A program made the translations under genes and the position numbers. A stretch of DNA of 64,000 nt from Bacteroidales bacterium (GTDB lineage: Bacteria > Bacteroidota > Bacteroidia > Bacteroidales > UBA3663), in assembly GCA_045600485.1 (NCBI GenBank), contig JAZRXX010000055.1, positions 7,293 to 71,292 on the forward strand. The letters run 5' to 3'. Positions 1,508 to 56,381 of this stretch are shown here, in pieces. The first letter of the stretch is position 1, and the number at the start of each line of letters is the position of its first letter. Under the pieces are notes generated by a model. That model did not search any database and was not told the origin of the DNA. It worked only from the letters and a program-made list of their open reading frames with translations.

Positions 1508-1580
1508 TTCTCAAGAAGAATTGAAGAATAGAAGTTATCTGCTAAAGAAGAATCTTCTTCTCTTCTCCTCTTCTTTGAGT
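1508..1580. repeat. Single copy of the ~75-83 bp 'ttctcaagaagaattgaagaa-agaag ... cttctcctcttctttgag' hairpin element
   Basis: Same arms as the units of the array at 3540..4356 and the copies at 55072 and 56309. It lies between convergent gene ends. Confidence 0.8.
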
Positions 1581-1656: not shown

Positions 1657-3489
1657 TTATTTGAGATCCTTCAGACCTTCGTATTCGTTGATGAACTGTT
1701 CCTTCTCGCCTTGCTGCAACAGGCCGTAAGCTTTGAGCGCTGCGTCGCGATAGAGGGTCATCTTCTCCTGATTGCCCTTCTGCTTATACAGTCGGGCTCC
1801 GGTTTCGTAGAGTGAGAATTGGTCGTAATTGTAGATGATAGGATCTTTCTTTATTAGTTGTTTTAAAAATCCTTCTGATTTGAGGAAGGATTGTTCCGAC
1901 GCTTCTAGCTCATTTAGTTCTAATTGAGCATTTGCCAAATTGGAATACGCAATATTTATAAAATATAAATAAGCTTCAGGGTTCTTTTTGTAAAGTTCTT
2001 CTGTTATATCAGCATACTCTTTTTGTGAATCTACAAAATCGAGCCAATTTTTGCTCATATAACAAATTTGACCCATACTTCCCAATGCGACAAAGATAGG
2101 AGAAGAGGTCTCTTCGTTATGCTCATATATAGTACGTGCAATTTCAACTGCTCGTTTGCCTGAAGTGAGTGCGTTTTCAGTCTCCCCTAAGAACTGGAGA
2201 ACACGACAGTTGGTGCTATGCAGATTGACTAACAACTCGGCATTTTCAGCAGGTTCGGCCTGATAACGAGTCTCACATTCCTGAACGGCAGTTGTCAGGA
2301 TTTCTTGGGCTTTTTCAATCTGGTTGGTCCAGATGTAATTGTTTGCCAGAATGTATTTGAGGTTCAGCAGGTGAGCGGCAAATCGTTCCGGCTCCTTCTC
2401 TGCCATAGGTTGCAGAATCTGGAACGCCTGCTGATAGGCTGCTTCTGCCTTCTCGGACTCATGCTTGAGCATATAACCCTGGCCCAATCGGGAATAGGCA
2501 CTTGCCTTCAGTTCTGGATGCTCCTTGCAACCACGGATATAGATGCCGAAATAGGTTTCGCTCTCAGTATAGAGATTCTGGGCGAGGGCGTGATCTGCAT
2601 ATTGATAGACAGCCTCCAGATTGGTGGTGTCTGCATCGGCAACGGATTTCATAAGGTCGGTAACCTTCTGGAAGTTCTCACGTCCACCTGCCAGACGATA
2701 GGTGGCAATCTGACGATGGATGGCCTGGAAGACCTTTTCGCGTTCGCTGCGTTTTTGGGCTTCGACAACTGCCAGCTGAGCTTGGGCGCGATCGATCTTG
2801 GAAATCTCTTCGCATTGTTTCTTGTACTGTGCCTGATAGTCGGCTGACTCGTACTTCTGGATGGCTTTGTCGATCTTGCCGTCTTGCACAAGTTTGATCA
2901 GTTCGTTCTGCTGACTGGTAAGTTCGGAGAGGTCGATGCGGGCAAACTGATCGACGTAGTTCTCAAGATCTTCCAATTGCTGCTGGTACTGGTTCTCAAG
3001 GTCGAGCATCTTCTGCTGATAGGTCTCTTCGAGCATCTTGGTCTTCTTGCGCTCGGCAGCCAAACGAGCCTGTTCTGCTTTGTACTGCTTGGCGTAGCTA
3101 TCGCTGGCAATGCGGCTGTACTGGTCGCGCAATGCCATGAACTTGTCGCTGCGGCACAGCACAATCTGGAACGGACGCTGTGGCGATACGCTCCATTGCT
3201 CGATGGCTTGGCTGTTGAAGATCTCGAAGCCTGCCTTCTCGATGCGGCGCACGGTGACGCGGTCGCCTGCATGTAACGTACGGAACTTGAGGATGGCCTC
3301 ACCTTTGTCGTCGGAGAAGGCTGCGCCAGCATTGAGTACGGTGACACTCACCTGCGCCAGAGGAGTCTTGCTCTCTTTGCCGTTGTATTCGAGTACGGTG
3401 ACGTGCTGCTCACTTTGCGCCAACAGTGTTTCTGTTCCACAAAGAGCCATGCCGATCATTGCTCCGAAGATGTATTTCTTTATTTCCAT
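1657..3489 (-). CDS. Secreted coiled-coil plus TPR-repeat protein. The N-terminal ~240 aa are paralogous to the product of 4358..5155.
   Basis: The ORF is open to 3522. Met at 3489 gives a signal peptide (MEIKKYIFGAMIGMALCGTETLLAQ). This is followed by a beta-sandwich-like segment (VTVLEYNGKESKTPLAQVSVTVLNAG...DKGEAILKF), a long Q/E/K-rich heptad region and TPR-like repeats (AYSRLGQGYMLK..., AYSNLANAQLEL...). Confidence 0.8.
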   Translation of the reverse strand: MEIKKYIFGAMIGMALCGTETLLAQSEQHVTVLEYNGKESKTPLAQVSVTVLNAGAAFSDDKGEAILKFRTLHAGDRVTVRRIEKAGFEIFNSQAIEQWSVSPQRPFQIVLCRSDKFMALRDQYSRIASDSYAKQYKAEQARLAAERKKTKMLEETYQQKMLDLENQYQQQLEDLENYVDQFARIDLSELTSQQNELIKLVQDGKIDKAIQKYESADYQAQYKKQCEEISKIDRAQAQLAVVEAQKRSEREKVFQAIHRQIATYRLAGGRENFQKVTDLMKSVADADTTNLEAVYQYADHALAQNLYTESETYFGIYIRGCKEHPELKASAYSRLGQGYMLKHESEKAEAAYQQAFQILQPMAEKEPERFAAHLLNLKYILANNYIWTNQIEKAQEILTTAVQECETRYQAEPAENAELLVNLHSTNCRVLQFLGETENALTSGKRAVEIARTIYEHNEETSSPIFVALGSMGQICYMSKNWLDFVDSQKEYADITEELYKKNPEAYLYFINIAYSNLANAQLELNELEASEQSFLKSEGFLKQLIKKDPIIYNYDQFSLYETGARLYKQKGNQEKMTLYRDAALKAYGLLQQGEKEQFINEYEGLKDLK

Positions 3490-3539
3490 AACCTTTTTGT
3501 TTATTTCCGATTGAATCGCCATGTGGATCCTTATAATAA

Positions 3540-4356
3540 TCTCAGGAAGAATTGAAGAAAAGAAGCTATCTGCCCAAGTGAAATCTTCCTATCTTCACCA
3601 CTTCTTAGAGGTTATAAATTATTCTCAAGAAGAATTGAAGAAAAGAAGCTATCTGCTAAAGTGAAATCTTCTTATCTTCACCTCTTCTTTGAGGTTATTT
3701 ATTATTCTCAAGAAGAATTGAAGAAAAGAAGCTATCTGCCCAAGTGAAATCTTCTTATCTTCACCACTTCTTTGAGGTTATTTATTATTCTCAAGAAGAA
3801 TTGAAGAAAAGAAGCTATCTGCCCAAGTGAAATCTTCTTATCTTCACCACTTCTTAGAGGTTATAAATTATTCTCATGAAGAATTGAAGAAAAGAAGCTA
3901 TCTGCCCAAGTGAAATCTTCTTATCTTCACCACTTCTTAGAGGTTATTTATTATTCTCAAGAAAATTGAAGAAAAGAAGCTATCTGCTAAAGTGAAATCT
4001 TCCTATCTTCACCACTTCTTAGAGGTTATAAATTATTCTCAAGAAGAATTGAAGAAAAGAAGCTATCTACTCAAGTGAAATCTTCTTATCTTCACCACTT
4101 CTTAGAGGTTATAAATTATTCTCAAGAAGAATTGAAGAAAAGAAGCTATCTGCTAAAGTGAAATCTTCTTATCTTCACCACTTCTTAGAGGTTATAAATT
4201 ATTCTCAAGAAGAATTGAAGAAAAGAAGCTATCTGCTAAAGTGAAATCTTCCTATCTTCACCACTTCTTTGAGGTTATTTATTATTCTCAAGAAGAATTG
4301 AAGAAAAGAAGCTATCTGCCAAAGTGAAATCTTCTTATCTTCACCACTTCTTTGAG
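3540..4356. repeat. Tandem array of 10 units of ~83 bp, each an imperfect ~26-bp-stem hairpin. It fills the entire spacer between the two paralogous genes.
   Basis: The unit is tctcaagaagaattgaagaaaagaag-ctatctgcccaagtgaaat-cttcttatcttcaccacttcttagaggttataaattat. Unit starts are near 3540, 3623, 3706, 3789, 3871, 3955, 4037, 4120, 4203 and 4286. Units differ only by a mosaic of SNPs (ccc/cta, tt/cc, tagagg..aaatt/ttgagg..tttatt). There are no unique spacers. Confidence 0.95.
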
Positions 4357-4357
4357 T

Positions 4358-5155
4358 TTAGTTTTGAGGTTGCTGCGCCTTGACACCCTCCATGAAGTCG
4401 ATGGTCGCCTTGAGGGAGTCGCGGGCAATAGCCTTTTCGTTGCGGATGACCGAGAGACTGTCTTGTGTGGTGCGGATAGTCTGAATCTGCTGACTGGCCT
4501 GCTGATACTTACCAAGCAGATCCATCTGCTCATAACGAGCGATAGCTGCATCAAGCTCACCCTTTTGCACGAGTTCGATAATTTCCTGCTCCTCTTTACT
4601 CAACTCCGAGAGGTCGAAATGGGCAAACTTCTCGACATAAAGGTCGAGGTTCTCCAACTGCTGTGCATAGAAATCTTCGGTCTTCTGGAGTTCTGCCTGA
4701 TATTCTGCCTCCTTGAGCTTGCCAGCTTTACGCTCTTCGGCCAAGCGAGCTTTCTCCTGTTGGAGCTGACGGCTATAGCTGTCGCTTGCAACCTGAGAGT
4801 ATTGGTCGCAAAGGGCACGGATCTTCTCGCTCTTGCAAATCACTAATTGGAACGGTACCTGGGGCGAGACAACCCACTGCTCTACAGCTTCGAGATTGAA
4901 GATTTCGTAGCCAGCCTTCTCCATGCGACGGATGACAATAGGATCACCTGCATGCAATGTGCGGAAGGTAAGCGTCAGGAATCCTTGAGCATCGCTCATG
5001 GTAGTTCCTGCATTGTTGACCGAGAGTCCGACTCCTTGTACCGGAGTCTTCTCTTCTTTGCCATTGTACTCGACAACCTGCACTCGCTGTTCGGACTGCG
5101 CCCATGCCGATATTGCAAAGATGGCAGAGATTGTAAATGATATGATTCTTTTCAT
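4358..5155 (-). CDS. Secreted coiled-coil protein, the short paralog of the N-terminal half of 1657..3489
   Basis: The ORF is open to 5194. Met at 5155 gives the signal peptide MKRIISFTISAIFAISAWAQ. By eye it is about 50% identical over ~240 aa to the longer paralog (SEQRVQVVEYNGKEEKTP.., FRTLHAGD, EKAGYEIFN, DLSELSKEEQEIIELVQKGELDAAI). Confidence 0.8.
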   Translation of the reverse strand: MKRIISFTISAIFAISAWAQSEQRVQVVEYNGKEEKTPVQGVGLSVNNAGTTMSDAQGFLTLTFRTLHAGDPIVIRRMEKAGYEIFNLEAVEQWVVSPQVPFQLVICKSEKIRALCDQYSQVASDSYSRQLQQEKARLAEERKAGKLKEAEYQAELQKTEDFYAQQLENLDLYVEKFAHFDLSELSKEEQEIIELVQKGELDAAIARYEQMDLLGKYQQASQQIQTIRTTQDSLSVIRNEKAIARDSLKATIDFMEGVKAQQPQN

Positions 5156-5170
5156 GATTCTTCCTTTACT

Positions 5171-5220
5171 TAAAACTCTAAACCTTAAACTCAAAACCCT
5201 AAACTCAAAACCTTAAACCC
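5171..5220. repeat. Short tandem 'taaaac/ctaaac' word repeat
   Basis: The sequence is taaaactctaaaccttaaactcaaaaccctaaactcaaaaccttaaaccc, between the TIR gene stop and the next gene start. Confidence 0.8.
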
Positions 5221-5254
5221 TTGTCCTCCTACCCCCAGGGGCAGAAGGACAAGG
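5219..5254 (-). terminator. GC-rich hairpin 5 nt downstream of the TIR gene stop. It may be an intrinsic terminator or an RNA-stabilising stem.
   Basis: ccttgtcctcct (5219-5230) pairs with agaaggacaagg (5243-5254) with one mismatch, and there is an inner cccc/gggg pairing. On the minus strand it is followed by gtttaaggttttgagttt. Confidence 0.4.
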
Positions 5255-5258: not shown

Positions 5259-6380
5259 TTACTTATGCAGCAAGAAGGTCAGCTCTTTGGCAACGGTCTC
5301 TTCCGGACTGTCGAAAAGCTCGTAGCCATCGCACGAGATAAGCACATTCTTGTATTCACGCTGACGCTCCTCCGGAATGTCGATCAGGAAGTTGCCATCG
5401 GCATCGGTAGTAGCGGTGAAATCTCCACCATCGATGCTGACTAAAGCACCTGCTACCGGCTGTGTGGTCTCGAAGTCCAGTACTCGTCCGCCAAAGTAAC
5501 GGAAGGTATCGTCGCGCTTCAGGTCAAGGGTCATCTCGGTACTCAAACCAGAACCCAACAGAATGCTGGTGGCAATAGAGTCATAGTAAGGAGCCTTGAA
5601 CGAAACTTCGATTGAACCCATGCGATGGAATCCGGCTACGCTGTGCAGTTGAATGGTGGTATCGAGCTTGGTGAGCAGATAGTCGTTGCCATTGACGGTA
5701 AGCGTTCCGCCGTAACCATCGTTGGTTGTGCCGTATGGCAACTGGTGCTTGGCATCGTTGATGGTCATGGTGAGCTGTACTGGCAATGCGAACCAGTAGA
5801 GCAGGAAGGTAGCAGCGATAACCGAGAGTGTATTGACGATGATGCGACGACGACGCTCACGCTCGTGGCGCTTCCAGAGGGTATCGAACGAAACGCCCAA
5901 CATCTTGGATACAACACGGATGAAGGCCTTCTGCTGACCGACTTCGGCAATACTGACACCGAGCAACTCGGCTTCAGGATGCGACTGGGTATATTCCTTC
6001 AGGTAGCGAGGGAAACACTCGAGGTCTGGATTGTAACAGTTTGGCTGACCATCGACGATAAGTGGGATGATGCAATCCAAACGTCCCCATTCGATGAAGG
6101 ACTGGACCTCTTTGCTCACCCATTCAGATTTGGCTGAATTAGGAGAACAGAGTACGATGAGATACTTGGAGGCTTCGAGATTGTCACGAAGCACATTGCC
6201 GAGCACACCGGTGTTCAAGTCGGTCTGGTCACGGAAGACCGGACGGATGAACTTGCTGTCCTCGAACTCGTTGTGAATCTCGGTAGGCAACTTGTAGCCT
6301 TCGAGGTTCTTCTGAAGCCATTTGGCCCACTTTACGTCCTTGTGGTTGTAACTGATGAACGCGAAATTTTTTCTTTCCAT
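5259..6380 (-). CDS. TIR-domain protein with a single transmembrane helix and a C-terminal CarboxypepD_reg-like beta-sandwich
   Basis: The N-terminus is FAFISYNHKDVKWAKWLQKNLEGY...PVFRDQTDL..G......LEASKYLIVLCSPNSAKSEWVSKEVQSFIE, which is the TIR_2-type pattern including the S.W...E glutamate. This is followed by RHERERRRRIIVNTLSVIAATFLLYWFALPV (positive-inside TM helix). The C-terminus is GGRVLDFETTQPVAGALVSIDGGDFTATTDADGNFLIDI. Confidence 0.85.
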   Translation of the reverse strand: MERKNFAFISYNHKDVKWAKWLQKNLEGYKLPTEIHNEFEDSKFIRPVFRDQTDLNTGVLGNVLRDNLEASKYLIVLCSPNSAKSEWVSKEVQSFIEWGRLDCIIPLIVDGQPNCYNPDLECFPRYLKEYTQSHPEAELLGVSIAEVGQQKAFIRVVSKMLGVSFDTLWKRHERERRRRIIVNTLSVIAATFLLYWFALPVQLTMTINDAKHQLPYGTTNDGYGGTLTVNGNDYLLTKLDTTIQLHSVAGFHRMGSIEVSFKAPYYDSIATSILLGSGLSTEMTLDLKRDDTFRYFGGRVLDFETTQPVAGALVSIDGGDFTATTDADGNFLIDIPEERQREYKNVLISCDGYELFDSPEETVAKELTFLLHK

Positions 6381-6411
6381 AGTCTCAATATATGTTTAGT
6401 TTTGTTGTTGT

Positions 6412-6492
6412 TTCTATAGTTTCTATAGTTTCTATAGCTTCTATAGCTACTATAGCCTCTATAGCCACTATAGCTTCTATAGCTTCTATAGC
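6412..6492. repeat. Nine tandem copies of a 9-bp unit (ttCTATAGy) carrying the palindromic hexamer CTATAG
   Basis: The sequence is ttctatagt ttctatagt ttctatagc ttctatagc tactatagc ctctatagc cactatagc ttctatagc ttctatagc. It occupies the gap between the patatin gene stop (6494) and the TIR gene start (6380). Confidence 0.95.
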
Positions 6493-6493
6493 C

Positions 6494-8680
6494 TTAAAAG
6501 CAATAGCCTACGTTTAGCATGAGCTTGAACTCTTTGGTGCGCTCGCTCCAATAGCCGAACAGGGAGATGGGACCAGCCATGCTGCTGTAGCTGTAGCCGA
6601 ACTGTGTGCCCCATGTGAAGCCATCGTGACTAAAGAAGCTGTCCCATTGGCTGCCGATGGCGGCAACATCGACGCCACCTTGCAGATAGTGGCTCTTGCC
6701 GAGACGCTGCTGTAGTGCCATGCCTGCCGAAGCATAGGCATTTTCGGTTATATACTCGAGTGTCGGCAAGCCTGCCATGGTGAGCTGGTGATCGACCTTC
6801 ATTCCCTCGGCAAAACCTCCGACCACATTGCGAAGCGAAACTGGAACCTCGCTGACGTCATCGTGGATGATGATGCGTCCGTTGGCATGCGGAATCATTG
6901 TGAAACGCTGACCGTAGGTGTAGGCAGAACTCCAGAAGAGGCTTGCGATCGGAATACCGGTCTTGCCGTTGAAATCGACCGTATTGTCGGTGATGATATC
7001 CAGGTTGCCGACCACGCGAGTGCCTTCGATCGGGAAGTATCGCGAATTCTGTGTGTTGAACTCCGCATGGGCGTAGTACGAGAAGTAGCGGATTCGTTCC
7101 CCCTCCAACTCCGGCGCCATGTCAGCCACCGAATTGCGTACCAGCATGTCGGAGTAGTAATGCCAGTCGTACTTGAGTCCGAACGTGTAGAGCACATTGT
7201 GCCAGGTCTGTCCGAAATAAACGGCCGTGCGCTGGTGATTACTTGTCACATCGGCAATACGGCTGCCATGATTGAAATACTGTATGTCGGTATGTTCGTA
7301 CATGTAGGACAATCCGATGCGGGCATTGTTGATGAAGTTGTGACTCACTTGTATGCCACCACGCAGGCGCTGTCCTAAACGGCCATAGATGCTTGCCGAG
7401 AAGTTCCGGTTGGTGGGCAGATTGACGTTGGCTCCAAAGTGAACCGAAGCATACTCGTCGTTGTCGAAGCGTGCACCCATGCTGACGGCACTGTTGAGAT
7501 AGTTGGTACGGATGCGCTTGAAGAAATGACCGCGTTCGCTCTCTTCCAGTTCGTGCTCGTGCCTCAGAAGTGCCTTTTCGGCCAATTGTTCCTGACGCAA
7601 AGCCTGAGCCTTCTTATAGGCTAACTCAATCGGCCCATATTGCTGTTGCAGACGGGTGCGCAGCGAGACAATCTGTGGCAGACGCTGACGGGCGCGTCGT
7701 TCTCCACGGACGATGAGGGAGTCGATGTCGGTAGCGCCAAAGCTGGCCGAACTATACTCGGTAACATCGATGTCGATGTAGATGTCACTCTGTCGGATGT
7801 TCTCCTCGTACTGATGTGTACTGCTCACATCGATCACATGGGTGACAAGTTCCATGAGGTTGTTGTAGCGTTCGGCAGGAGGGGTGTTGCTGACCAAATC
7901 GCAGCCAATGATGATGTCGGCGCCCATACGTTTGGCTACATCGACCGGGTAGTTGTTGGTCACGAAGCCATCGACGAAAATCATCGAGTCAATCTGCACA
8001 GGAGTGAAAACGCCCGGAATGGCCATCGAAGAACGCATGGCTTGTACCAGATTGCCACTGTGAAACTCATAGACCTGACCGGTTATTACTTCGGTTGCAT
8101 TGCAGGCAAAGGGCATCGGCAAGGTGTTGAAGTCTGCTGAATCGGGAGCTGTTTCGGTAAGCCGTTTCAGGAAATCCTCGATGTTTCGCCCCTGAATGAT
8201 GCCTCCTCTGCCAGTGCGGCTGAACTGACGTTCGGGGTTGAGGCCGACACGCAACTGATAGGCTTCGCTGAGCTTGCGCGCTGTGAGCAGGTTGTTGCCG
8301 AAGTCGGGCGTGTCGAGCAGAAGTTGTAGCCAGTCTGTGCTTCGGGCTACACTGTCCATCTCGTCGGGGGAATAGCCCAGGGCATAGAGACCACCGACAA
8401 TGGAACCCATCGAGTTGCCCACCACAATGTCAATCGGAACGCCTGCCTCTTCCAATACCTTCAGCGCTCCGATGTGTGCCAATCCTTTGGCTCCACCACC
8501 TGCCAGTACCACAGCCACTTTGGGCCGTTGTTGTGCGGCAAGGGGGGATGAAAAGGCAACGGAGAGGAACGTCATGACGGACAGCAGGAGGGCTGTCTGC
8601 AAGGTCCGGAGCGTTTGCGTTTTGTATTTATTGACTGATTTCAATGCAGAGAGTTTAAAAAGTCCTGAATGTGCTGGCAA
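6494..8680 (-). CDS. Patatin-like phospholipase fused to a C-terminal outer-membrane beta-barrel (PlpD / type Vd autotransporter-like architecture)
   Basis: It has GGGAKGLAHIG (oxyanion GGxK/R), the GNSMGS nucleophile elbow (GxSxG) and a DGF/DG dyad region. The C-terminal half has alternating beta-strand character and ends ...LMLNVGYCF (terminal Phe). The longest ORF overlaps the upstream gene by 40 bp, so the true start may lie further in. Confidence 0.85.
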   Translation of the reverse strand: MPAHSGLFKLSALKSVNKYKTQTLRTLQTALLLSVMTFLSVAFSSPLAAQQRPKVAVVLAGGGAKGLAHIGALKVLEEAGVPIDIVVGNSMGSIVGGLYALGYSPDEMDSVARSTDWLQLLLDTPDFGNNLLTARKLSEAYQLRVGLNPERQFSRTGRGGIIQGRNIEDFLKRLTETAPDSADFNTLPMPFACNATEVITGQVYEFHSGNLVQAMRSSMAIPGVFTPVQIDSMIFVDGFVTNNYPVDVAKRMGADIIIGCDLVSNTPPAERYNNLMELVTHVIDVSSTHQYEENIRQSDIYIDIDVTEYSSASFGATDIDSLIVRGERRARQRLPQIVSLRTRLQQQYGPIELAYKKAQALRQEQLAEKALLRHEHELEESERGHFFKRIRTNYLNSAVSMGARFDNDEYASVHFGANVNLPTNRNFSASIYGRLGQRLRGGIQVSHNFINNARIGLSYMYEHTDIQYFNHGSRIADVTSNHQRTAVYFGQTWHNVLYTFGLKYDWHYYSDMLVRNSVADMAPELEGERIRYFSYYAHAEFNTQNSRYFPIEGTRVVGNLDIITDNTVDFNGKTGIPIASLFWSSAYTYGQRFTMIPHANGRIIIHDDVSEVPVSLRNVVGGFAEGMKVDHQLTMAGLPTLEYITENAYASAGMALQQRLGKSHYLQGGVDVAAIGSQWDSFFSHDGFTWGTQFGYSYSSMAGPISLFGYWSERTKEFKLMLNVGYCF

Positions 8681-9597
8681 TAACCATCGAAGTCCTTGTG
8701 GATGGAACTGGCATGTCGTGCATGAGGTACCTCCCAGAGGTATTTCTGTCCGGGATGGGCATCATAGACCTGATGAACCATGTGGAATGGAACGTAGTCA
8801 TCCTCGACGCCATGGATGAACAGCATCGGCTTGCGGCATTTGGCAACCTGTGCGACCGCATCGCCGTCCGAGAACCACCAACCATGCCAGATCCTGTTGA
8901 TCAATGAGCCAAAATAAAGCATCGGGAAAGGGGGCAGACCGAACTGGTCGTTGAGCTTGTGGGCAAGCAGATCCCAGGTGGTGGAGTAGCCACAATCTTC
9001 GACAAAACCTTCGACTTGAAGGCTGTCGGCTATCTCGTCGCCCGACAGGAGCATGGTGGTAGTGGCGCCCATCGAGAGTCCGTGCACCACAATCGGCTGA
9101 TGCCAGGCCTGATGCATGAAGTCGAGCCAGAGGTGCATGTCCTGGCTGTCGAGCCAGCCGAAGGTGATGTGGTCGCCTTCGCTCTTGCCACACCAGCGAC
9201 GTTCGGGCAAGAAGACATTCTGGTGCAGAATCTCGTAGTCGCAATAGGTATAGCGCATCATGACAGGCGCATCGTCGCAATAACCATGTATCAGCATCAT
9301 CGAGCCACTGACAGGCACGGTGTCTGTGTCGGGGTGTTCGAGCATCAGTCCGTGCAGGGTGATGCCTTCGCTATTGGTGATATAGACATCACGGCAAAGG
9401 TTGTTATCGACCAGACTGTCAAACCACGGTTTCAGTTCTGGGTAGCGATTGTAAACCATTGAGAATGCGACATCGTAATTCTGTCCATAATTCTCGTCCG
9501 GAACGGTGGCAATACGTGCCACCTGATAGCCACCGGCAAAGCAGAAAGCTATCAGCAGAACGATGATGGCAAGGAGAGAATAATATATCTTTTTCAT
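8641..9597 (-). CDS. Alpha/beta-fold hydrolase with an N-terminal membrane anchor or signal
   Basis: It has MKKIYYSLLAIIVLLIAFCFAGG, then MLIHGY, the nucleophile elbow HGLSMG and FIHGVEDDYVP...H late in the sequence. This is a typical Ser-Asp-His hydrolase layout. Confidence 0.8.
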   Translation of the reverse strand: MKKIYYSLLAIIVLLIAFCFAGGYQVARIATVPDENYGQNYDVAFSMVYNRYPELKPWFDSLVDNNLCRDVYITNSEGITLHGLMLEHPDTDTVPVSGSMMLIHGYCDDAPVMMRYTYCDYEILHQNVFLPERRWCGKSEGDHITFGWLDSQDMHLWLDFMHQAWHQPIVVHGLSMGATTTMLLSGDEIADSLQVEGFVEDCGYSTTWDLLAHKLNDQFGLPPFPMLYFGSLINRIWHGWWFSDGDAVAQVAKCRKPMLFIHGVEDDYVPFHMVHQVYDAHPGQKYLWEVPHARHASSIHKDFDGYCQHIQDFLNSLH

Positions 9598-9619: not shown

Positions 9620-9627
9620 CAAATATA
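9620..9627 (-). promoter_or_regulatory. Bacteroidetes-type -7 box (TATATTTG on the minus strand) upstream of the hydrolase gene
   Basis: Plus-strand caaatata is the reverse complement of TAnnTTTG. It is 23 nt upstream of the ATG at 9597. Confidence 0.5.
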
Positions 9628-17312: not shown

Positions 17313-18152
17313 TCACTTACTTTCGCTTTTCGCCTTTAGGAACTGGATTTTCTTGCCAGCCACTTTGCTTTGCTGAGAATAAAGCAACTGGGCTGCAAGA
17401 AGCTGTCCAAGCTGATAGGTCATGGCAATGGCTGTGCGATCCTGATTCGAGATCTCGACCGAAACGCTTTTGGCTCCATCGTTGTAGAGCAATGCAGCGC
17501 GGAGTTTGGTGTCGTTGGAATGCATGTCAACATACGCCAGGATAGGGTCGTTGACGTAGGTGACCGATTCGTGGCACAGTCCTTGGTTCTTGAAGTGGTA
17601 GTTGGCCCCATCGTTTGAGAGTGGAACAACAGCACTTGTCATTTCGCTTTTGTCGAAACCGATCATTTTCATCTGCGTATGGTTGATGTAGGATCCACCG
17701 CGATATTCGCTGATCAGATGAGTGATGCCATAATCGTTGACTGTGGCATGGATATAGTTGCGATTGATGTTGTTCTGTGTGTCAGTTCCTTTTACATAGA
17801 AACGGCCCAGCTCATCGTATTCTCCCTTTTCGTACTGGAAGTTGCCTCTTTCGACCATTTCGTTGATCATGCGTGTTATGGCAACTAACATCGAATCGGC
17901 ACTTGCCAACGAGTCTTGCTGAATGGCCAACTGTACCTGGTAGCCGAACTGATGACCAGCCTTGCGCCATTCGATGGCCTGCTTGCAATTACTCTCGATG
18001 CTGTCAAGCAGAGCAATCGCCTTGAAGTGATTACCTTGAGCATAGGCTTGCTCAGCCTGTTTGTAGTACTGCTCGGCCTGCTTCTCTTCCTGACTTGTGC
18101 ACGAAGCAAGCATAACAACTGTCACAAGGATAATAAATATCTTTTTCATCAT
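17313..18152 (-). CDS. Lipoprotein of unknown function
   Basis: It has the lipobox MMKKIFIILVTVVMLASC-TSQ. The ORF is uninterrupted and on the same strand as its neighbours. Confidence 0.7.
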   Translation of the reverse strand: MMKKIFIILVTVVMLASCTSQEEKQAEQYYKQAEQAYAQGNHFKAIALLDSIESNCKQAIEWRKAGHQFGYQVQLAIQQDSLASADSMLVAITRMINEMVERGNFQYEKGEYDELGRFYVKGTDTQNNINRNYIHATVNDYGITHLISEYRGGSYINHTQMKMIGFDKSEMTSAVVPLSNDGANYHFKNQGLCHESVTYVNDPILAYVDMHSNDTKLRAALLYNDGAKSVSVEISNQDRTAIAMTYQLGQLLAAQLLYSQQSKVAGKKIQFLKAKSESK

Positions 18153-18154
18153 TC

Positions 18155-18195
18155 AACTCAAAACTGAAAACTTAAAACTTAAAACTCAAAACTAA
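18155..18195. repeat. AAAACT-type heptamer word repeat overlapping the RelA/SpoT stop codon
   Basis: The sequence is caactcaaaactgaaaacttaaaacttaaaactcaaaactaa. On the minus strand the last unit reads TAGTTTTG (18187-18194), a TAnnTTTG match 35 nt upstream of the lipoprotein ATG. Confidence 0.75.
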
Positions 18196-22138: not shown

Positions 22139-23410
22139 ATGAATATGAAATTCCGCCTCATCATCATGAACCTTCTGGAGTTCGCGGTGTGGGGATCTTA
22201 TTTGACTTCGATGGGTGCCTATCTGGCCAATTGCAATTTGGCGACAGATATCGGTAACTATTATGCCTTGCAGGGTATTGTCTCGATTTTTATGCCAGCA
22301 CTCATGGGTATCGTGGCAGACCGCTGGATTCCAGCACAGCGCCTCCTGTCCATGTGCCATTTCTTGGCTGCTGTTTTCATGTTGATTGCCTCCTATATCG
22401 GCTTGACTGCAGGCCCTGAAGGGGTAAATGGAGCTGCATTGTTCGGCGCTTATGCCATGAGTGTTGCCTTCTATATGCCAACTCTCGCCTTGAGCAATTC
22501 GGTTGCCTACAATGCTTTGGATAAGGCTGGATTGGATACGGTCAAGGCATTTCCTCCTATCCGAGTGTTCGGAACGGTCGGTTTCCTTTGTGCCATGTGG
22601 TTGGTCGATCTGGCTGGCTGGCAGAATACTCCAGTTCAGTTTGTCGAGTCTGGTGTCTTCGGATTGCTGATGGCTGCCTACTCTTGGTTCATGCCTGATT
22701 GTCCGTTGAACAAGGGTGAGGGCAAATCGTTGGTCGAGGCTTTGGGTCTCAAGGCCTTCGCGTTGTTCAAGCAGAAGCGTATGGCGTTGTTCTTCATTTT
22801 CTCGTTCATGCTGGGCGTTTCGTTGCAGATTACCAATGGCTATGCCAATCCGTACATTCAGTCGTTCGGTGATATGGAGGCTTACAAAGGACTCTTCTTT
22901 GTTGAGCATAGCAACTTGCTTGTTTCTTTGTCGCAGATCAGCGAGACACTCTGCATTCTTCTGATTCCATTCTTCCTGAAGCGTTATGGTATCAAGATTG
23001 TGATGCTGATTGCCATGTTGGCGTGGGTGGGCCGTTTCGGCTTCTTCGGTTGTGGCGATCCGGGCAATGGCGTATGGCTTTTTATCCTTTCGTGCATTGT
23101 CTATGGTGTGGCTTTCGACTTCTTCAACATTTCAGGCTCACTCTTTGTCGATAAGGAGACGGATCTTTCTATCCGTTCGTCGGCACAGGGACTGTTTATG
23201 CTGATGACCAACGGTCTGGGTGCTACAGCCGGTTCGTTTGCAGCTAAGGCTGTGTTCAACAGTTATGTCTTTGCCGATGGTCTTGATGCTATTCAGCAGA
23301 ATGAGGGTTGGCGTACCTCCTGGTATATCTTTGCTGGCTATGCATTGGCGGTCGCTGTTGCTTTTGCTGTCTTGTTCCAATACAAGCATCAAGAAACTGA
23401 TAATCGATAA
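22139..23410 (+). CDS. MFS transporter of the nucleoside:H+ symporter (NupG/XapB-like) type
   Basis: It has about 12 hydrophobic helices and an N-terminus (MKFRLIIMNLLEFAVWGSYLTSMGAYL) typical of NupG-like permeases. Confidence 0.7.
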   Translation: MNMKFRLIIMNLLEFAVWGSYLTSMGAYLANCNLATDIGNYYALQGIVSIFMPALMGIVADRWIPAQRLLSMCHFLAAVFMLIASYIGLTAGPEGVNGAALFGAYAMSVAFYMPTLALSNSVAYNALDKAGLDTVKAFPPIRVFGTVGFLCAMWLVDLAGWQNTPVQFVESGVFGLLMAAYSWFMPDCPLNKGEGKSLVEALGLKAFALFKQKRMALFFIFSFMLGVSLQITNGYANPYIQSFGDMEAYKGLFFVEHSNLLVSLSQISETLCILLIPFFLKRYGIKIVMLIAMLAWVGRFGFFGCGDPGNGVWLFILSCIVYGVAFDFFNISGSLFVDKETDLSIRSSAQGLFMLMTNGLGATAGSFAAKAVFNSYVFADGLDAIQQNEGWRTSWYIFAGYALAVAVAFAVLFQYKHQETDNR

Positions 23411-23527
23411 CCGATGGTCGATAGTCGATAACCGATAATCGATGGTCGATAATCGATAGTCGATAACCGTAAATCGTCAATCGGCAATCGTTAATCGTTA
23501 ATCGTTAACCGTAAATCGTTAACCGGA
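23396..23527. repeat. About 18 tandem heptamers, each starting with CG (cgataat, cgataac, cgatggt, cgatagt ... cgttaat, cgttaac)
   Basis: The strict 7-bp phasing is read directly from the sequence. The array starts inside the last codons of the permease gene (..ETDNR*) and ends 5 nt before the rsmE ATG. Confidence 0.9.
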
Positions 23528-23531
23528 CTTT

Positions 23532-24239: not shown

Positions 24240-24332
24240 GGTAGAGGTTGAAAATTAGTTCGATTCTTTCGAAAATAGGCAAGAATCTTAACTTTTAACT
24301 AATAACTTATAACTTTTAACTCAAAAAATATC

Positions 24333-28812: not shown

Positions 28813-31724
28813 CCATAGGTCTCTTGCACCCATTGGAAATAGTCTTCGAAAGTGCGGCCACCCAAGAGGGCGCGGAAGTTTGGTTCGTTGATGTCAATCT
28901 GAATGATACCATCCGGCAGATCCAGCGTCTGTGAACGGTCCATGCGGTCATGATAATTGAGTAGCTCATCCAAGTTGTTGAATCCACGGATCACGAGTAC
29001 CGATAGACCACCACCCGTATCGATGATTTCGAGGTCGAAGTCTCGTACCAGATAGTTTTCGAAATTGAATTTGGCGATTTCGAAGAGCAGATCGTTCTGG
29101 TTGAGACTATCGGTCGGGAAGGTGAGCAACAGCAGGTGAGGGGCATTGTCATCATCCACAAACATCTGTGTTGTGTCGATGGCAGAACTGTCGCTGGCCA
29201 GATGGAGAGAGGCACCCCACATCATACCACGTGTCACTTCGCCCGATTGTACGTTTCGGCCTTCGTGAAGACCTTTGACCATCAGGCTGGCCAATGGTGA
29301 AACATCGCTTTCCGGATAGGTAGCGGTGAGTTGTTCCAACGTCTCCTGAAATGCCTTTGTGTCACCCTCTTGTACGTAGCTGAGAGCATGCAGGAAAATG
29401 AACTTCGGCATCAGGTTCGAAAGTGGCCATTTGTCGTGTACAAAGAAGTAGGAGTTGTGGACCTGCTCTGCCTCTCCTTGCAGATAAGAGGCGTATGTCC
29501 GGATGTAGAGAGAGTCCTGTCCCTTGACCATATCACGCATGTTCTGCAGGTAGTTAGGATCGGCCAACGCAATACCGTAGGCAGACTCCGGGAAGGTATC
29601 GATAAGCTTCTTCTTGTAGATTTCGGCATTGGCCAGATCGTTCATGCGCATATACATCAAGAAGATGGCGTAGTAGCTCTCTAATCTGTAAACGGACTCC
29701 GGATAGCGTTTCTCCATGTCGAGGAAGGTTCGGATCGAGAGAGGGAAGTTTTCCAGCTTTTCGTCGATGATTTTTGCCTCGTTATACAATCCCTCTTCGA
29801 TGAGTTGGTTGGCATTGGCAACCTCCTCTTCGGTGCGAGGAATCTGGCTCAGGTAGTATGCGCGTTTGTGCGGGTCTTTGGCCTCCTCCTCGTTGTAGGC
29901 AGGGGAGGCCTCGGTCATGGAGGTGCTTTGACCCTCGGGTAACCCCTCGGGAACGGTGGCATTCAGACCCTCGGGAACGGTGGCGATTGTCGATTCGCGA
30001 TTAGAGTTGTTCCCGTTGGTCACGTCCCCTTCGGGGTTAGGGTTATCGTTAGGGTTATCGTTATCGTCTTCATTGTCGTCATTGAAGGCAATGGTTTCCG
30101 TCTTGTTTCGACGACGCCAGTTGTCTTCCGGTTTACGCGAGCCCCACTTGCGCTGGAACTCAGATTTGCCCTGACTGATGACGCTTGGGTTGTAGAAATA
30201 CCACGATTTGTCGGTTTGTCCGACGGTTGGAGCAGTCTCCTTTTGTGCCAATGGATCCACATTTTGTGACTTCCGGTCCTCATAGGCAGCGAGAGCCTCC
30301 TTTTCGGCTTCCTCCTTTTCCTTTTTAATCAGTTCCTTGATGATATTATCAATCACCTTGTTCAATTCCGTTTCGGACAAGGTTGCCAGGTGGAGCAGGC
30401 TGTCTTGCAACTGTACCGTTTCGGCATGTGTCTGCAGTTCGTCCAATACAGCCGAAAGTTGTTTGATCTCTTCGTAGCCCTTGAAGTCATCTTTGATGAT
30501 TCCCATGGCAACCGAATAGGCTTTTTGCGCACGGACATAGTCACCACGACCGAAAGTGAGTTCGCCCAATGCCAGCGCGGCAGTAGCCTTCTCCATTCCA
30601 TTGCGGGTGCTCTTTTCGATTGCCTGTTCGTATCGTTCGATGGCTTTGGCAGTGTCTTTGCGCATCAGCGATACTTCGGCCAAAGCGGTGTAGATCTGGT
30701 CCTGATACTCTTCGTTGCGCGCCTGATGACGCAGGAAGTTCAGCTTTCGCTCTACCTGGCTGAGTTGCTTGGGCGAGATGCTTTTCCCCTCTTGCTGGTG
30801 AGTCAGGACACGGATGCGTGCCAGTCGGGCATTGAATTGGGTCTTGTAGTCGCGAGCCTGACGGACAATACGGTTATAAGTCTTGGCAGCATCTGTATAA
30901 TGGCCGTATTCTTCGTTCAATTGAGCAACGAAGAAATCGGCGCGTATGCGCTGTACTTTGGTTTGGAATCCTCGGCGAGCCTTGTTCAAGTAGGGGATAG
31001 CCTCTGCTTCGCGACTTTCGTCGAGCAAGATAATCTCGGCCAAAGCCAGGCTGAAGAGTCTTTGCAAGCGCAAAGGCAACTGGTAGTAATAATCCACTCT
31101 TGAGAGTTCTTCCTGATTCTTGTATTTTTTGCTGGCGATGACCTGTTCCAGTTCCGTTTCGGCAGCAAAGCGATTGCCTTGTACCGCCTGGATTCTGGCC
31201 ATCCAGATATGGCTTTCGTCTATTGCCAACTGTTTCCACCAGAAGTGGCGGACAATATAGTTGAATGTAGATTGGGCTCCGTCGAAGTCACCATTGTAGA
31301 ACTGGGCACGTCCTGACAGGAGCCAGGCATTGTGCATGTAGGGATTATATTCCTCACGTTTGAGCCATAGTTTGTACTCAGGAGTAGCCTCTTTGTGTCG
31401 TTTGGGTTTGGCATTGATGCTTTTCGTCTGGACACACTTCTTGCATTTCTCGATGGCAGCGTCGAATGACGAAGTCGGTTGTTTGCCGACCAGATCATAA
31501 ACAGGATGGAGTTCGAGCCGATGCGAATAATCATCTTTCGTGGTGTTTTCCTCCATGCTCTTCAGGCTTTGCTTGTAGGCCTCCTCTCCATTGAAGTGGA
31601 TGTTGTACTTGGTCGTCAGACCAGCAATGCCACGATTCAGTTTTGTGTTCGACTTGCATGCCGAAAGCAGTCCTACCGTTAGCAGGACAGCTCCAATCAT
31701 ATATGCAAGTCGGAATTGTTTCAT
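28806..31724 (-). CDS. Large TPR-repeat lipoprotein (972 aa) with an internal low-complexity insert. A PorW/SprE-like T9SS role is possible but unproven.
   Basis: It has the lipobox MKQFRLAYMIGAVLLTVGLLSAC-KS and multiple TPR-like repeats. The central D/N/P-rich stretch is DDNEDDNDNPNDNPNPEGDVTNGNNSNRESTIATVPEGLNATVPEGLPEG. The T9SS link is only inferred from size, architecture and the T9SS cargo in this window. Confidence 0.8.
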   Translation of the reverse strand: MKQFRLAYMIGAVLLTVGLLSACKSNTKLNRGIAGLTTKYNIHFNGEEAYKQSLKSMEENTTKDDYSHRLELHPVYDLVGKQPTSSFDAAIEKCKKCVQTKSINAKPKRHKEATPEYKLWLKREEYNPYMHNAWLLSGRAQFYNGDFDGAQSTFNYIVRHFWWKQLAIDESHIWMARIQAVQGNRFAAETELEQVIASKKYKNQEELSRVDYYYQLPLRLQRLFSLALAEIILLDESREAEAIPYLNKARRGFQTKVQRIRADFFVAQLNEEYGHYTDAAKTYNRIVRQARDYKTQFNARLARIRVLTHQQEGKSISPKQLSQVERKLNFLRHQARNEEYQDQIYTALAEVSLMRKDTAKAIERYEQAIEKSTRNGMEKATAALALGELTFGRGDYVRAQKAYSVAMGIIKDDFKGYEEIKQLSAVLDELQTHAETVQLQDSLLHLATLSETELNKVIDNIIKELIKKEKEEAEKEALAAYEDRKSQNVDPLAQKETAPTVGQTDKSWYFYNPSVISQGKSEFQRKWGSRKPEDNWRRRNKTETIAFNDDNEDDNDNPNDNPNPEGDVTNGNNSNRESTIATVPEGLNATVPEGLPEGQSTSMTEASPAYNEEEAKDPHKRAYYLSQIPRTEEEVANANQLIEEGLYNEAKIIDEKLENFPLSIRTFLDMEKRYPESVYRLESYYAIFLMYMRMNDLANAEIYKKKLIDTFPESAYGIALADPNYLQNMRDMVKGQDSLYIRTYASYLQGEAEQVHNSYFFVHDKWPLSNLMPKFIFLHALSYVQEGDTKAFQETLEQLTATYPESDVSPLASLMVKGLHEGRNVQSGEVTRGMMWGASLHLASDSSAIDTTQMFVDDDNAPHLLLLTFPTDSLNQNDLLFEIAKFNFENYLVRDFDLEIIDTGGGLSVLVIRGFNNLDELLNYHDRMDRSQTLDLPDGIIQIDINEPNFRALLGGRTFEDYFQWVQETYGD

Positions 31725-31732
31725 ATTTTTTT

Positions 31733-31800
31733 CGATAACCCTAACGATAACCCTAACCCTAACGAAAATCCTAATCGCTCATCACTCATCGAGCATTGCT
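31733..31800. repeat. Intergenic word repeat (cgataaccctaac x2, ccctaacgaaaatcctaatcgc...)
   Basis: The 25-mer cgataaccctaacgataaccctaac (31733-31757) is exactly repeated, inverted, at 30036-30060 inside the adjacent gene. Confidence 0.9.
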
Positions 31801-33789: not shown

Positions 33790-34030
33790 GAAAAATGAAA
33801 AGTGAACAATTTAATAGAAAAGTGAAAAGTGAACAATGAACTCACTCAACAGAAAACTTCATCAATCAAGAGAAAAGAGCAAAGTGAACAATGAACCCAC
33901 TCTGCAGAAAACTTCACTAATCAAGAGAAAAGTGAACAATGAACTCACTCTGCAGAAAACTTCACCAATCAACTCAAAACTAAAAACTAAAAACTCAAAA
34001 CTAAAAACTGCAAACTAAAAACTGCAAACC
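33790..34030. repeat. Composite repeat: three ~48-57-bp units (gtgaacaatgaac.cactc.gcagaaaacttca..aatcaa...) followed by AAAACT-type heptamers
   Basis: Units start at 33829, 33884 and 33932. The tail caactcaaaactaaaaactaaaaactcaaaactaaaaactgcaaactaaaaactgcaaacc overlaps the pepT stop codon. Confidence 0.9.
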
Positions 34031-35262
34031 ACCAACTTGCAGATATTTACCACGGTCATCATGGCCTTCTCCATGCTCTGGATAGGTACATACTCAAAAC
34101 GACCGTGCATGTTCATGCCACCGGCAAAGATGTTCGGGCAAGGCAGTCCCTTGAACGAAAGCTGAGCGCCGTCGGTGCCACCACGAATCGGCTGGACTTT
34201 CGGAGCAACGCCAGCCTCAAGTATTGCCTGCTTGGCGAGTTCAATGATGCCCGGCAAGTTCTTCTGCTTGTTGGCCTCGTCTGCCTCCTGTACCTTTTCG
34301 AGCATGTTGTAGTATTGATCTTTCAATACCACTTCGCAGCAACCGGGGTGTTGTGAGTTGATGTTCTCGGCAATGGCAAGGATGTTCTGTTTGCGAGCCT
34401 CAAAGAGTTCACGGTTGTGGTCGCGGATGATGTACGACAACTGGGCCGACACAACGCTGCCCGACATGCCGATCAGGTGGTAGAAACCTTCGTAGCCTTC
34501 GGTGTGCTCCGGACGTTCCTCTTCTGGCAACTGCTTGGCAAACTCCATGGCCAACAGAGCTGCATTGACCATCTTGTCCTTGGCTGTGCCTGGGTGTACG
34601 TTGGTTCCCTTGAACGTAATCTTGGCCGATGCGGCATTGAAGTTCTCGAACTCCAGTTCACCCACTTCGCCGCCATCCATGGTGTAGGCCCAGTCGCAAC
34701 CGAACAGTTCGACGTTGAAGTGATGTGCACCCATACCGATCTCTTCGTCAGGATTGAAAGCGATACGCACCTTGCCATGTTTGATTTCTGGATGTTCGCG
34801 CAGATAGAGCATTGCAGAGATGATTTCGGCAATGCCAGCCTTGTCGTCGGCACCGAGCAGTGTAGTTCCGTCGGTTACGATCAAATCTTCGCCTACGTGG
34901 TTCAGCAGTTCAGGGAAGTAGCTGGTCTGCATAACGGTGTCTGCATTCAGCTGGATGTCCTTGCCGTCATAGTTCTTGACAATGCGAGGCTTGACATTCT
35001 TGCCCGATGCATCAGGGGCAGTGTCCATGTGGGCAATGAAGCCGATGGTTGGTACCTGTTCGCAACCAGGGGTGGCAGGCAGAGTGGCATACAGATAGCC
35101 CAGTTCGTCGAGGACTACCTCTTCGAAGTTCAAGCTGACCAGTTCCTCTTTCAATTGTTGGGCAAAGAGCATCTGGGTTGGGGTACTTGGGGTGACCTCA
35201 GTTGTTTCGTTGCTGGTAGTTTCTACCTGCACATATCGCATAAATCTTTCGACTAAATCCAT
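34015..35262 (-). CDS. pepT: Peptidase T (tripeptide aminopeptidase, M20B)
   Basis: It has [26 protein letters not shown] and [12 protein letters not shown]. The ORF is open to 35328 but the alignment-like start is at 35262. Confidence 0.92.
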
Positions 35263-39271: not shown

Positions 39272-39356
39272 GTGTATCCATTGATGCCAACAGAACACGG
39301 ACTTGCTTTGTTAAGTACCCCTACAAGGAATTTATTGCTGTCCGGGGAATAATTTA

Positions 39357-39553
39357 CTCCATGAATCGAAATCAAAAGAATTCAATCTATTGCTAACGCA
39401 CCATTTTGCATGGCAAATCCAGCTGTGACGCGAATCTAAATCAATAAAAATATGGTGATGGCAACTAAGATTAATTTCCATTCGTGTCACAGCTGGATTT
39501 GCCATGCCTTCCGACAAGTTGGAAATTTGATTTTTATTGATTTCCATTCATGG
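39357..39553. repeat. ~200-bp compound palindromic element in a non-coding gap
   Basis: The outer inverted repeat is ctccatgaatcgaaatcaa (39357-39375) / ttgatttccattcatggag (39535-39553), with 1 mismatch. The inner 28-bp inverted repeat is gcatggcaaatccagctgtgacgcgaat (39408-39435) / attcgtgtcacagctggatttgccatgc (39480-39507), with 1 mismatch. There is an extra aatcaataaaaat / atttttattgatt pair. Confidence 0.85.
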
Positions 39554-39570
39554 AGAAAAAAGATAGGGGT

Positions 39571-39619: not shown

Positions 39620-39657
39620 TTCTTCATTAAATCATAACCTTATTTCCGTTTTTCATT

Positions 39658-39982: not shown

Positions 39983-40010
39983 ACACAGTACTTTTCAGTG
40001 GAAGTCACAG

Positions 40011-55071: not shown

Positions 55072-55143
55072 TTCTCAAGAAGAGTTGAAGAATAGAAGCG
55101 TCTGCAAACCACAGATTTTCTGGTCTTCTCCTCTTCTTTGAGT
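55072..55143. repeat. Single copy of the hairpin element (ttctcaagaagagttgaagaatagaag ... cttctcctcttctttgag)
   Basis: It is the same family as 1508, 3540-4356 and 56309. Its 3' flank gttttatagtcaatcaac is shared with 56309. Confidence 0.8.
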
Positions 55144-56308: not shown

Positions 56309-56381
56309 TTCTCAAAGAAGAGGAGAAGGATAGAAGTATTTAGCTAACCACTAATCTTCTTATCTTCTCCTCTTCTTTGAG
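56309..56381. repeat. Single copy of the hairpin element (ttctcaaagaagaggagaaggatagaag ... cttctcctcttctttgag)
   Basis: It is in the same family and orientation as 55072..55143. The shared 3' block is cttctcctcttctttgagtKttatagtcaatcaac. Confidence 0.8.

Follow-up and report, generated by a model that had tools for sequence, protein, structure and literature searches.

Why two adjacent paralogous cistrons of a bacterial operon should be separated by ten consecutive copies of a long hairpin, and what such an arrangement might do to the transcript that carries it, is the question raised by a locus in the genome of an uncultured member of the Bacteroidales (GTDB lineage UBA3663). The stretch analysed, hereafter the window, comprises 64,000 nt (assembly GCA_045600485.1, contig JAZRXX010000055.1, positions 7,293 to 71,292 of the forward strand), and the repeated unit, here called the A element, occurs in it as a tandem array between the two paralogs, the second of which carries a tetratricopeptide repeat (TPR) region, and as dispersed copies elsewhere. 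[quoted passage not shown] The in-situ amplification of one dispersed A copy is the part of this reading that is largely established.

Tandem Repeats Finder reports a single array at 3540-4360 with a period of 83, 9.9 copies, 94% matches, no indels and a score of 1425, and the core of the unit is matched ten times in the array as compared with none in 100 shuffles. Together with a column-for-column alignment, these results agree with the initial annotation, made from the sequence alone, according to which ten near-identical 83-bp units fill the spacer between the paralogs. The units follow one another head-to-tail, with starts at 3540, 3623, 3706, 3789, 3872, 3954, 4037, 4120, 4203 and 4286, and each consists of a 71-nt imperfect hairpin and a 12-nt A/T linker, unit 6 being one base short and unit 10, which is without linker, stopping at the foot of the hairpin. 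All ten are distinct, with nine variable columns in the alignment; 12 pairs of informative sites display all four combinations in a four-gamete test, and neighbouring units differ from each other as much as distant ones do (3.78 differences in both cases). The mosaic of single-nucleotide states noted initially is thereby confirmed, and for the same three reasons the array seems to have been shuffled by unequal exchange or conversion, and not to stem from one recent burst.

The units abut, and their linkers (12-13 nt), which come in two variant forms only, are similar to the flank of the last unit. Furthermore, a CACCAC arm variant is common to all units of the array and to the single unit of a conspecific contig (L008, described below), and is absent from the dispersed copies. 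The arm variants in common and a linker like the last unit's flank argue for duplication in situ rather than for repeated insertion. The boundary of the array at 4357..4370 codes, on the minus strand, for the last codons (Q-P-Q-N) and the stop of the upstream gene, the C-terminus of which, EGVKAQQPQN or EDIKNQKQ followed by the stop, occurs in two forms that differ between the window and the sister species.

Four sister loci, at 75-81% nucleotide identity to the window, allow the junction to be compared, three from Logan assemblies (L006, L007 and L009) and one from the metagenome-assembled genome (MAG) GCA_045627865.1 (L010). All of them contain the same five genes in the same order and no element between the paralogs, which are separated by a 4-nt spacer, TAATCACATG, in L006 and L007 and overlap by 4 nt (ATGA) in L009 and L010. 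Exactly one unit is found between the paralogs of L008, a 2.1-kb short-read Logan contig (SRR17543911) from the same species as the window. Compared with the window in 100-nt intervals, this contig is 97-100%, mostly 99-100%, identical along the initial ~1000 nt of the TPR gene; the 50-nt leader and the 3' end of the upstream gene agree with the window too, save for a single base in the latter. L008 ends within the dispersed copy that follows the TPR gene, where a true repeat would be expected to cause a break, and runs straight through the junction unit; as a tandem array would branch in a k=31 graph, yet the contig is unbroken at the junction, the one-unit state is taken as real for the dominant strain of that sample. 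Copy number, for which a comparison of strains had been recommended at the outset, appears to vary at the junction, from none in the four sister loci to one in the conspecific contig and ten in the window, and the most parsimonious history would be a single insertion into the coupled junction in the window's species and a later growth to ten units. Among the members of the TIR cluster no further conspecific strains were found, all being 89-92% identical. An origin of the junction element together with the gene duplication was considered and dropped, as the paralogs are only 51% identical and the sister species are without the element.

The comparison with L008 also bears on the suspicion that the array is an assembly artefact, a repeat mis-expanded from a true state of one unit, since the sole other conspecific assembly readable at the locus does have one unit. 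This is very improbable: the ten units differ in a structured mosaic, one of them with a 1-bp deletion, and assemblers collapse repeats but do not invent distinct variants. Moreover, the uniqueness of the units makes the array resolvable with moderately long k-mers, and related tandems are present in an independent MAG.

As predicted initially for an imperfect stem of ~26 bp, the single unit folds into an imperfect hairpin with ~22 paired positions per 26-nt arm, the fold energy being -21.9 kcal/mol for the + strand and -24.4 kcal/mol for the - strand, with none of 200 shuffles as stable. The hairpin, 70-72 nt long, combines a purine arm with a pyrimidine arm in an A/U-rich stem, and the whole transcribed array reaches -267 kcal/mol (z = -6.4), and its globally optimal fold also allows pairing between the arms of different units. 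A strand-specific stability that tracks the transcribed strand was abandoned as an idea, the pattern being inconsistent across copies. Compensatory changes in the arms of the main stem were not detected by RNAalifold or by pair counts across copies; the arms are almost invariant. No Rfam family matches the element at gathering thresholds in the whole window, at E <= 10 the segment 3400-4500 gives only weak miRNA and snoRNA hairpin noise, and the window contains no tRNA or tmRNA genes.

The uniform units, their stable hairpins and a U-rich stretch on the + strand, GUUAUUUAUU, after each of them might suggest that every unit is a small RNA (sRNA) gene, or is processed into small RNAs, in the manner of the tandem sRNA arrays NsiR1 or LhrC. 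This source of small RNAs, one of the functions put forward initially, is hardly credible here, as no unit has -7/-33 promoter boxes on either strand, every Rfam family scores far below its gathering threshold, with miRNA-hairpin noise at the top, and the stem is without compensatory change. A seed would be expected in the loop, yet no part varies more, the dispersed copies having unrelated loops, and the element is absent at the locus in all sister species.

A full A copy consists of a ~10-nt A/T-rich leader (TTATATTAT-like), the 71-nt hairpin and a T-rich tail of the TTTTAT type. The single copies announced near 1508, 55072 and 56309 as lying downstream of genes were located at 1509, 55073 and 56311, where they start 279, 117 and 46 nt past plus-strand stop codons. 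Between A copies the arms are near-invariant and the loops wholly different, each slightly lengthening the hairpin, and the feet read TTAT-TCTCAAG and CTTTGAG-TTTTAT in all of them. In + orientation the tails of dispersed copies are TTTTATAT, TTTTATAG, TTTTATTTTC and TTTTTCTTTC, and the first five tail bases hold 4-5 T in six of eight distinct dispersed copies (s1508, s55072, L001, L002, L004a and L005a), the exceptions being s56309 with 3 T and L003 with 2 T; the opposite strand of dispersed copies has 1-2 T. By sequence, the dispersed copies in + orientation thus have the form of an intrinsic terminator, a hairpin with a U-rich tract 3' of a transcription unit. In the sister MAG, a GC-rich 18-bp hairpin followed by TTTCTTTTT, a canonical terminator, stands downstream of ffh, and GC-rich hairpins with T-runs are the terminators downstream of the TPR gene in four of four sister loci, whereas the window's species has A copies at those ffh and TPR sites and no comparable GC-rich terminator. 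This replacement supports, though it does not prove, a terminator role of the dispersed A copies.

Within the operon, the orientation is the reverse. Defined by the dispersed copies (hairpin, then T-rich tail), the array units are antisense to the flanking genes and thus point against their terminator-like polarity, and on the strand of the operon mRNA their tails read AUAAU(A/U)(A/U)AUA, U making up 2 of the first 5 bases, so that the terminator form is not present on the transcribed strand. Ten consecutive terminator-like hairpins are therefore not the best reading of the array. A simple terminator scan found none on the minus strand in the array, such a scan being uninformative for long A/U-rich stems with large loops. 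The copies L001 and L005 of the sister MAG lie antisense between co-directional genes, and the tandem L004 is antisense ~90 nt upstream of a gene at the contig end, where only one neighbour gene is known. L002, L003 and L004a are found directly past a stop codon in sense orientation, and the sense copy of L003, 34 nt before the next gene start, is the copy without T-rich tail. These orientations fit a survival of non-terminating orientations inside transcription units, with numbers too small for testing.

The genes around the array are collected in Table 1. The flanking genes are paralogs, as initially proposed, with 51% identity over 230 aa of the N-terminal part of the downstream protein (E = 2e-78), and the spacer does extend from the stop codon of 4358-5155, which adjoins the array, to within 18-51 nt of the next start: the downstream ATG at 3489, 51 nt from the array, is that of a database gene call (P0001, 610 aa, 100% identity), and an alternative ATG at 3522 is 18 nt away. 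The exact 265-aa upstream paralog is on record as the protein of a called gene, GCA_024500545.1 encodes the same 265-aa and TIR proteins, and the TPR protein has its nearest named relative, at 54% identity, in Candidatus Liminaster caballi, a Bacteroidales of the horse gut. The first three genes of the operon span 5259..9597 and their order is kept in L006, L007, L009 and L010.

Table 1. Coordinates of the A elements in the window and of the operon that contains the array
Feature	Position	Strand	Basis or remark
Ten-unit tandem array of the A hairpin element	3540..4356	+	Tandem Repeats Finder, alignment, folds
Array boundary TTTAGTTTTGAGGT, similar to the unit end TTTGAGGTT	4357..4370	+	Sequence reading; Tandem Repeats Finder extends the array to 4360
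Single A copy, flanked by convergent genes	1509..1579	+	78 nt from the stop codon of the TPR gene (minus strand)
Single A copy downstream of ffh	55073..55142	+	Preceded by a decayed copy, forming a degenerate dimer
Single A copy downstream of the HepT gene	56311..56381	+	Best-preserved stem, -35.8 kcal/mol, 19 perfect basal pairs
A-rich 50-nt leader between last unit and downstream ATG	3490..3539	-	Without TAnnTTTG box; identical in the one-unit contig L008
Downstream paralog, 610 aa, C-terminal TPR region; operon gene 5, last	1657..3489	-	Pfam TPR matches
Upstream paralog, 265 aa, signal peptide, beta-sandwich-like N-terminus and coiled coil, no TPR part; operon gene 4	4358..5155	-	Translation
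TIR plus CarboxypepD_reg-like protein, operon gene 3	5259-6380	-	Pfam
Patatin-Omp85 protein, operon gene 2	6494-8680	-	Pfam
Alpha/beta hydrolase, operon gene 1	8641-9597	-	Pfam
TATATTTG, Bacteroidetes-type -7 box upstream of operon gene 1	9620..9627	-	Regex scan

The box at 9627 is the only minus-strand TAnnTTTG between 9627 and 2098, and the same form of -7 motif, TATCTTTG and TACCTTTG, stands upstream of other genes of the window. As had been stated at first, no promoter box is visible inside the array: the regex scan gave no TAnnTTTG there on either strand, and none between the array and the downstream ATG. A sigma-70 promoter scan, a model that is irrelevant for Bacteroidetes, was not above shuffles. 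As the sole minus-strand box is located upstream of the hydrolase gene, the five genes look like one operon, and with a single recognisable promoter the last gene would depend on transcription through the array. The presumed co-transcription of the array is also supported by the sister loci, where the paralogs are 4 nt apart or overlapping.

The downstream gene itself has been kept intact. Between the ten-unit and the one-unit strain its codons 1-306 show 11 synonymous changes and 1 non-synonymous change (ratio of non-synonymous to synonymous rates, dN/dS, 0.02), by which measure the gene is clearly maintained and under strong purifying selection. Its N-terminal half and the flanks are ~99% identical between the window and L008, whereas the TPR half (window 1657-2570 vs L008 1100-1900) is a divergent recombinant allele with 65-80% nucleotide identity, a synonymous divergence (dS) of 0.96 and dN/dS 0.20; this points to recombinational allele replacement within the species, and further variants of the TPR half, at 75-83% aa, are present in the protein collection. 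The A copies around the TPR gene were considered as mediators of its allele exchange and rejected, the mosaic boundary lying inside the gene, away from the elements.

Could the array nevertheless separate the two cistrons completely? A strong multi-terminator or insulator would fully uncouple the TPR paralog, which would then be effectively silent or transcribed from a promoter that escaped recognition, situated in the 50-nt leader or in the last unit. The copy at 1509, at the operon's terminator position, has the same relative orientation as the array, the hairpins are somewhat stabler on the mRNA strand (-24 vs -20 kcal/mol), and, as a matter of arithmetic, a termination of 30% per unit would leave ~3% read-through after ten units. 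We consider such an insulator improbable, given that no TAnnTTTG box occurs from the array to the ATG, that the tails on the mRNA strand are U-poor and that a dN/dS of 0.02 in the N-terminal half argues for expression in both allelic states. Read-through of the array would seem to be needed and tolerated, judging from the missing box in and after the array, the U-poor tails and the intact downstream gene.

For the partial attenuator or processor that we favour, the following course of events is proposed. One A copy would have landed at the 4-nt junction between the paralogs, translationally coupled and placed last in the five-gene operon, in the orientation opposite to the terminator-like polarity of the element, and slippage or unequal recombination between units would have led to ten copies with shuffled variants. 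Polymerase from the ~9627 promoter would have to read through the array, and the mRNA would carry ten hairpins of ~-24 kcal/mol, each with a tail behind it that is rich in A and poor in U. Three effects may be expected, namely a loss of translational coupling, a shielding of the segment with the four upstream cistrons against 3' exonucleases and/or a cleavage of the long stems, and a modest loss by termination or pausing per unit, which would multiply with copy number. The net outcome would be an expression of the TPR paralog that is lowered relative to its upstream partner, not abolished.

Several points weigh against this proposal. Attenuation, processing and stabilisation are all plausible consequences deduced from the sequence. 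As the stem arms are almost invariant, covariation lends no support to a selected structure. The one-unit state comes from a single 2.1-kb short-read contig, for which a collapse is argued against, not proven. The copy at 1509 has a polarity that is terminator-like for the convergent plus-strand gene and not for the operon; as it holds the operon's terminator position, the antisense polarity may also stop polymerase somewhat, and if the antisense orientation terminates well, ten units may be nearly fully polar. Finally, no transposase or integrase was seen among the ~35 open reading frames of the window that were scanned.

The array might also be without consequence, a neutral or selfish minisatellite that arose as a by-product of a high rate of intergenic tandem-repeat formation and adds only 0.8 kb of transcribed spacer. 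Around 20 other intergenic tandem repeats are present in the window, including a 9-mer in nine copies in the same operon, the copy number of which varies between lineages, an array of 8.5 copies of a 42-bp, hairpin-containing unit is found in the window as well, and the A family forms tandems at other loci; the stem shows no compensatory changes, and purifying selection on the downstream gene persists. On the other hand, an operon that has acquired ten stable hairpins and lost a coupled junction, with a 4-nt spacer or an overlap, is unlikely to be left unchanged in its expression. In the small census, moreover, three of the four sites between co-directional genes without an immediate upstream stop (the array, L001 and L005) are in the non-terminator orientation, and the fourth, the L004 tandem with its one known neighbour, is antisense as well, which hints at selection on orientation. 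We rate neutrality as unlikely, but as an explanation to be taken seriously. It had been noted at the outset that special interest in the array would drop if the element were equally amplified at many unrelated loci without effect on the transcript, and this is partly the case, with dimers and another tandem in the sister MAG and many other repeats in the window; tandem amplification is consequently a habit of the family and the genome and not special to this locus.

An extension of the attenuator reading would turn the array into a contingency-type rheostat, in which the number of units, driven by recombination, multiplicatively sets the amount of transcript that reaches the fast-evolving, allele-swapping TPR paralog of this TIR/patatin operon. 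Such a device is quite unlikely; if true, strains could tune or switch the dose of the TPR protein without a promoter change, and a terminator-derived minisatellite would serve as an analogue intercistronic attenuator.

Beyond the window, in which the A copies of the host genome were counted over 64 kb, a two-arm pattern was scanned for in one genome per species of 185,579 species (GTDB representatives). Only one MAG, with five stretches, matched, a count that is a lower bound since the pattern was strict. This MAG, Bacteroidales bacterium SGB_5586 (GCA_045627865.1), is a sister species that is syntenic with the window at 75-81% nucleotide identity, and contains degenerate dimers and a tandem of at least two units at a contig end, at a locus unrelated to that of the array. 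In the 38 kb of the MAG that are syntenic with the window no A copy occurs, versus four loci in the 64 kb of the window, which suggests an expansion of the family in the species of the window. Two pattern scans of JGI metagenomes gave 0 matches, a scan of viral contigs was likewise negative, and BLAST against plasmid and phage collections gave no match, where a low-complexity filter may mask the purine arms. The restriction of the A family to one genus-level lineage of uncultured Bacteroidales is by these searches largely established.

How the copies disperse is approached through their ends. Terminal inverted repeats are present in the form of the arms, which are perfect over 19 pairs at the stem base of the 56311 copy, and nearly every copy is flanked on both sides by TTTTAT(AT)-like sequence, which can be a duplicated A/T target or a part of the element, the corresponding sister sites being too diverged for a decision. 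The element model also has a weak match (E ~1e-3) in the coding region of the upstream paralog (L010 9632-9701, L009 4829-4898), AAGAGTTGAAGAAAACAGAAGACTTCTTTG, encoding EELKKTEDFF. A derivation of the A element from this EELKK-coding segment was considered and discarded, as the nhmmer match is weak and probably compositional.

A second hairpin family, B, is present at 1341-1398 and 55394-55451 in two copies that are 95% identical (CACACAAAGAAGAC...GTCTTCGTGCCTTCGTGTGAG), each near an A copy, and its tail, GAGTTTATATACAAGTC, is nearly the same as that of the A copy at 1509. The spacer between ffh and the GH43 gene (54956-56612) measures 1.66 kb as compared with 0.25 kb in the sister MAG (L011 11354-11605); the extra DNA holds an MNT/HepT toxin-antitoxin pair at 55598-56264 with its own TATCTTTG box and a B copy, and is bracketed by the direct A copies at 55073 and 56311.

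Other tandem repeats are scattered through the window. In the operon itself, the 9-mer GCTATAGAA (minus strand), repeated nine times at 6412-6492, fills the spacer between the patatin and TIR genes, with 4-5 copies in L006 and none in L010. The 42-bp unit repeated 8.5 times at 45797-46160, with the small hairpin GGAAAGCAATTTCC, lies between the gene of an AraC-type regulator and the promoter region of a gene for a 1757-aa LRR/DUF285 protein, and a related array of 3.6 copies of a 43-bp unit is found in the sister MAG (L005 5804-5959). Both genes belong to a variable island of ~10 kb (39272-49236) between GH2 and GH28 genes, absent from the sister MAG. The island also includes a MatE transporter and several tandem arrays, and the 1757-aa protein has internal coding repeats of 78 bp. 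Intergenic runs of the heptamer AACTSAA/TTSAGTT occur at 5157-5226, 18145-18193, 24280-24328, 33961-34037 and 39992-40068, mostly just upstream of minus-strand genes, and some of their phases create TAGTTTTG, a match to the Bacteroidetes -7 box. Also intergenic are 11-mer repeats of AAGGGAGTAAA (48676-48776 and 53305-53361) and a repeat of the 7-mer GATAATC (23399-23531), and short repeats of TAACCCTAACGATAAC, telomere-like CCCTAA, are located just upstream of a gene start and inside a GH97 gene (31724-31768 and 61875-61911). At a distance of 70-90 nt upstream of secreted-protein genes, both species share a conserved 30-nt motif, GATTTCATGAATGATTYAGAATGRTGGAG (45405-45440 on the minus strand, L004 145-174, L001 6157-6193), which may serve in regulation or belong to the 5' untranslated region.

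If the effect on the transcript is real, the junction offers a natural allelic series within one genus, with 0, 1 and 10 hairpins between the same cistrons, for measuring termination, mRNA decay and translational coupling in Bacteroidales, the post-transcriptional control of which is poorly known. The locus is also an example of the way in which terminator-like hairpins can multiply as repeats, take the place of canonical terminators and grow into minisatellites, at which short-read assemblies of gut MAGs break.

Among known systems, REP elements and bacterial interspersed mosaic elements (BIMEs) of Enterobacteria and Pseudomonas come to mind first, which within operons, for example between malE and malF, are barriers to 3' exonucleases or attenuators that set the relative expression of cistrons. 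Like these, A copies are short palindromes, all intergenic, near the 3' ends of genes and in tandem or clustered. REP singletons and dimers have been described as 'reiterated in tandem', the stem of a REP bearing a conserved tetranucleotide, GTAG or CGTC, at one of its feet (PMC3733652). The feet of the A element are without either tag, its hairpin of 71 nt, with an A/U-rich stem of a purine and a pyrimidine arm, exceeds the 20-40 nt of a REP, and its units are strictly head-to-tail and not alternating, in a Bacteroidales host with no RAYT gene seen in the window.

MITE-like hairpin repeats such as the Correia elements of Neisseria, ERIC and the pneumococcal BOX and RUP elements are shorter than 200 bp, have terminal inverted repeats, are intergenic and co-transcribed, and create terminators, processing sites or promoters. 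The A element shares with them a non-coding nature, long terminal inverted repeats, lineage restriction and intergenic location, and differs in forming a ten-unit head-to-tail array, which is rare there, with no parent insertion sequence found in the window or in the fetched loci. Closer in host is BrickBuilt of Porphyromonas gingivalis, described as a MITE with an internal, strain-variable minisatellite that has been proposed to modulate the transcription of its neighbours (PMC4596501). Both are intergenic repeats restricted to a Bacteroidales species, with a spacerless, strain-variable tandem array, whereas the BrickBuilt unit is 23 nt long, framed by leader and tail, and promoter-active, and the A array repeats a whole 83-bp hairpin without a promoter motif.

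In the cip-cel operon of Clostridium cellulolyticum, intercistronic stem-loops direct selective RNA processing and stabilisation (PMC4423207). Like them, the array most likely works as intercistronic stem-loops that set the stoichiometry of the paralogs post-transcriptionally, but those are single, conserved and locus-specific, whereas in the array a mobile or dispersed repeat has been amplified recently and to an extent that varies between strains. With CRISPR it has regularly spaced palindromic repeats in a non-coding stretch in common, though not unique spacers or cas genes, and the unit is far longer than a CRISPR repeat. Unlike tandem sRNA genes, A units are without a promoter of their own (no TAnnTTTG or TTTG boxes on either strand), and unlike integron attC sites they have no cassettes, no GTTRRRY core at the feet and no integrase in the window, and the copies are scattered among core genes (ffh, GH43). 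The A element is best filed as a new lineage-restricted family among the REP/MITE-like, terminator-type hairpin repeats, a member of a well-known kind and not a new system.

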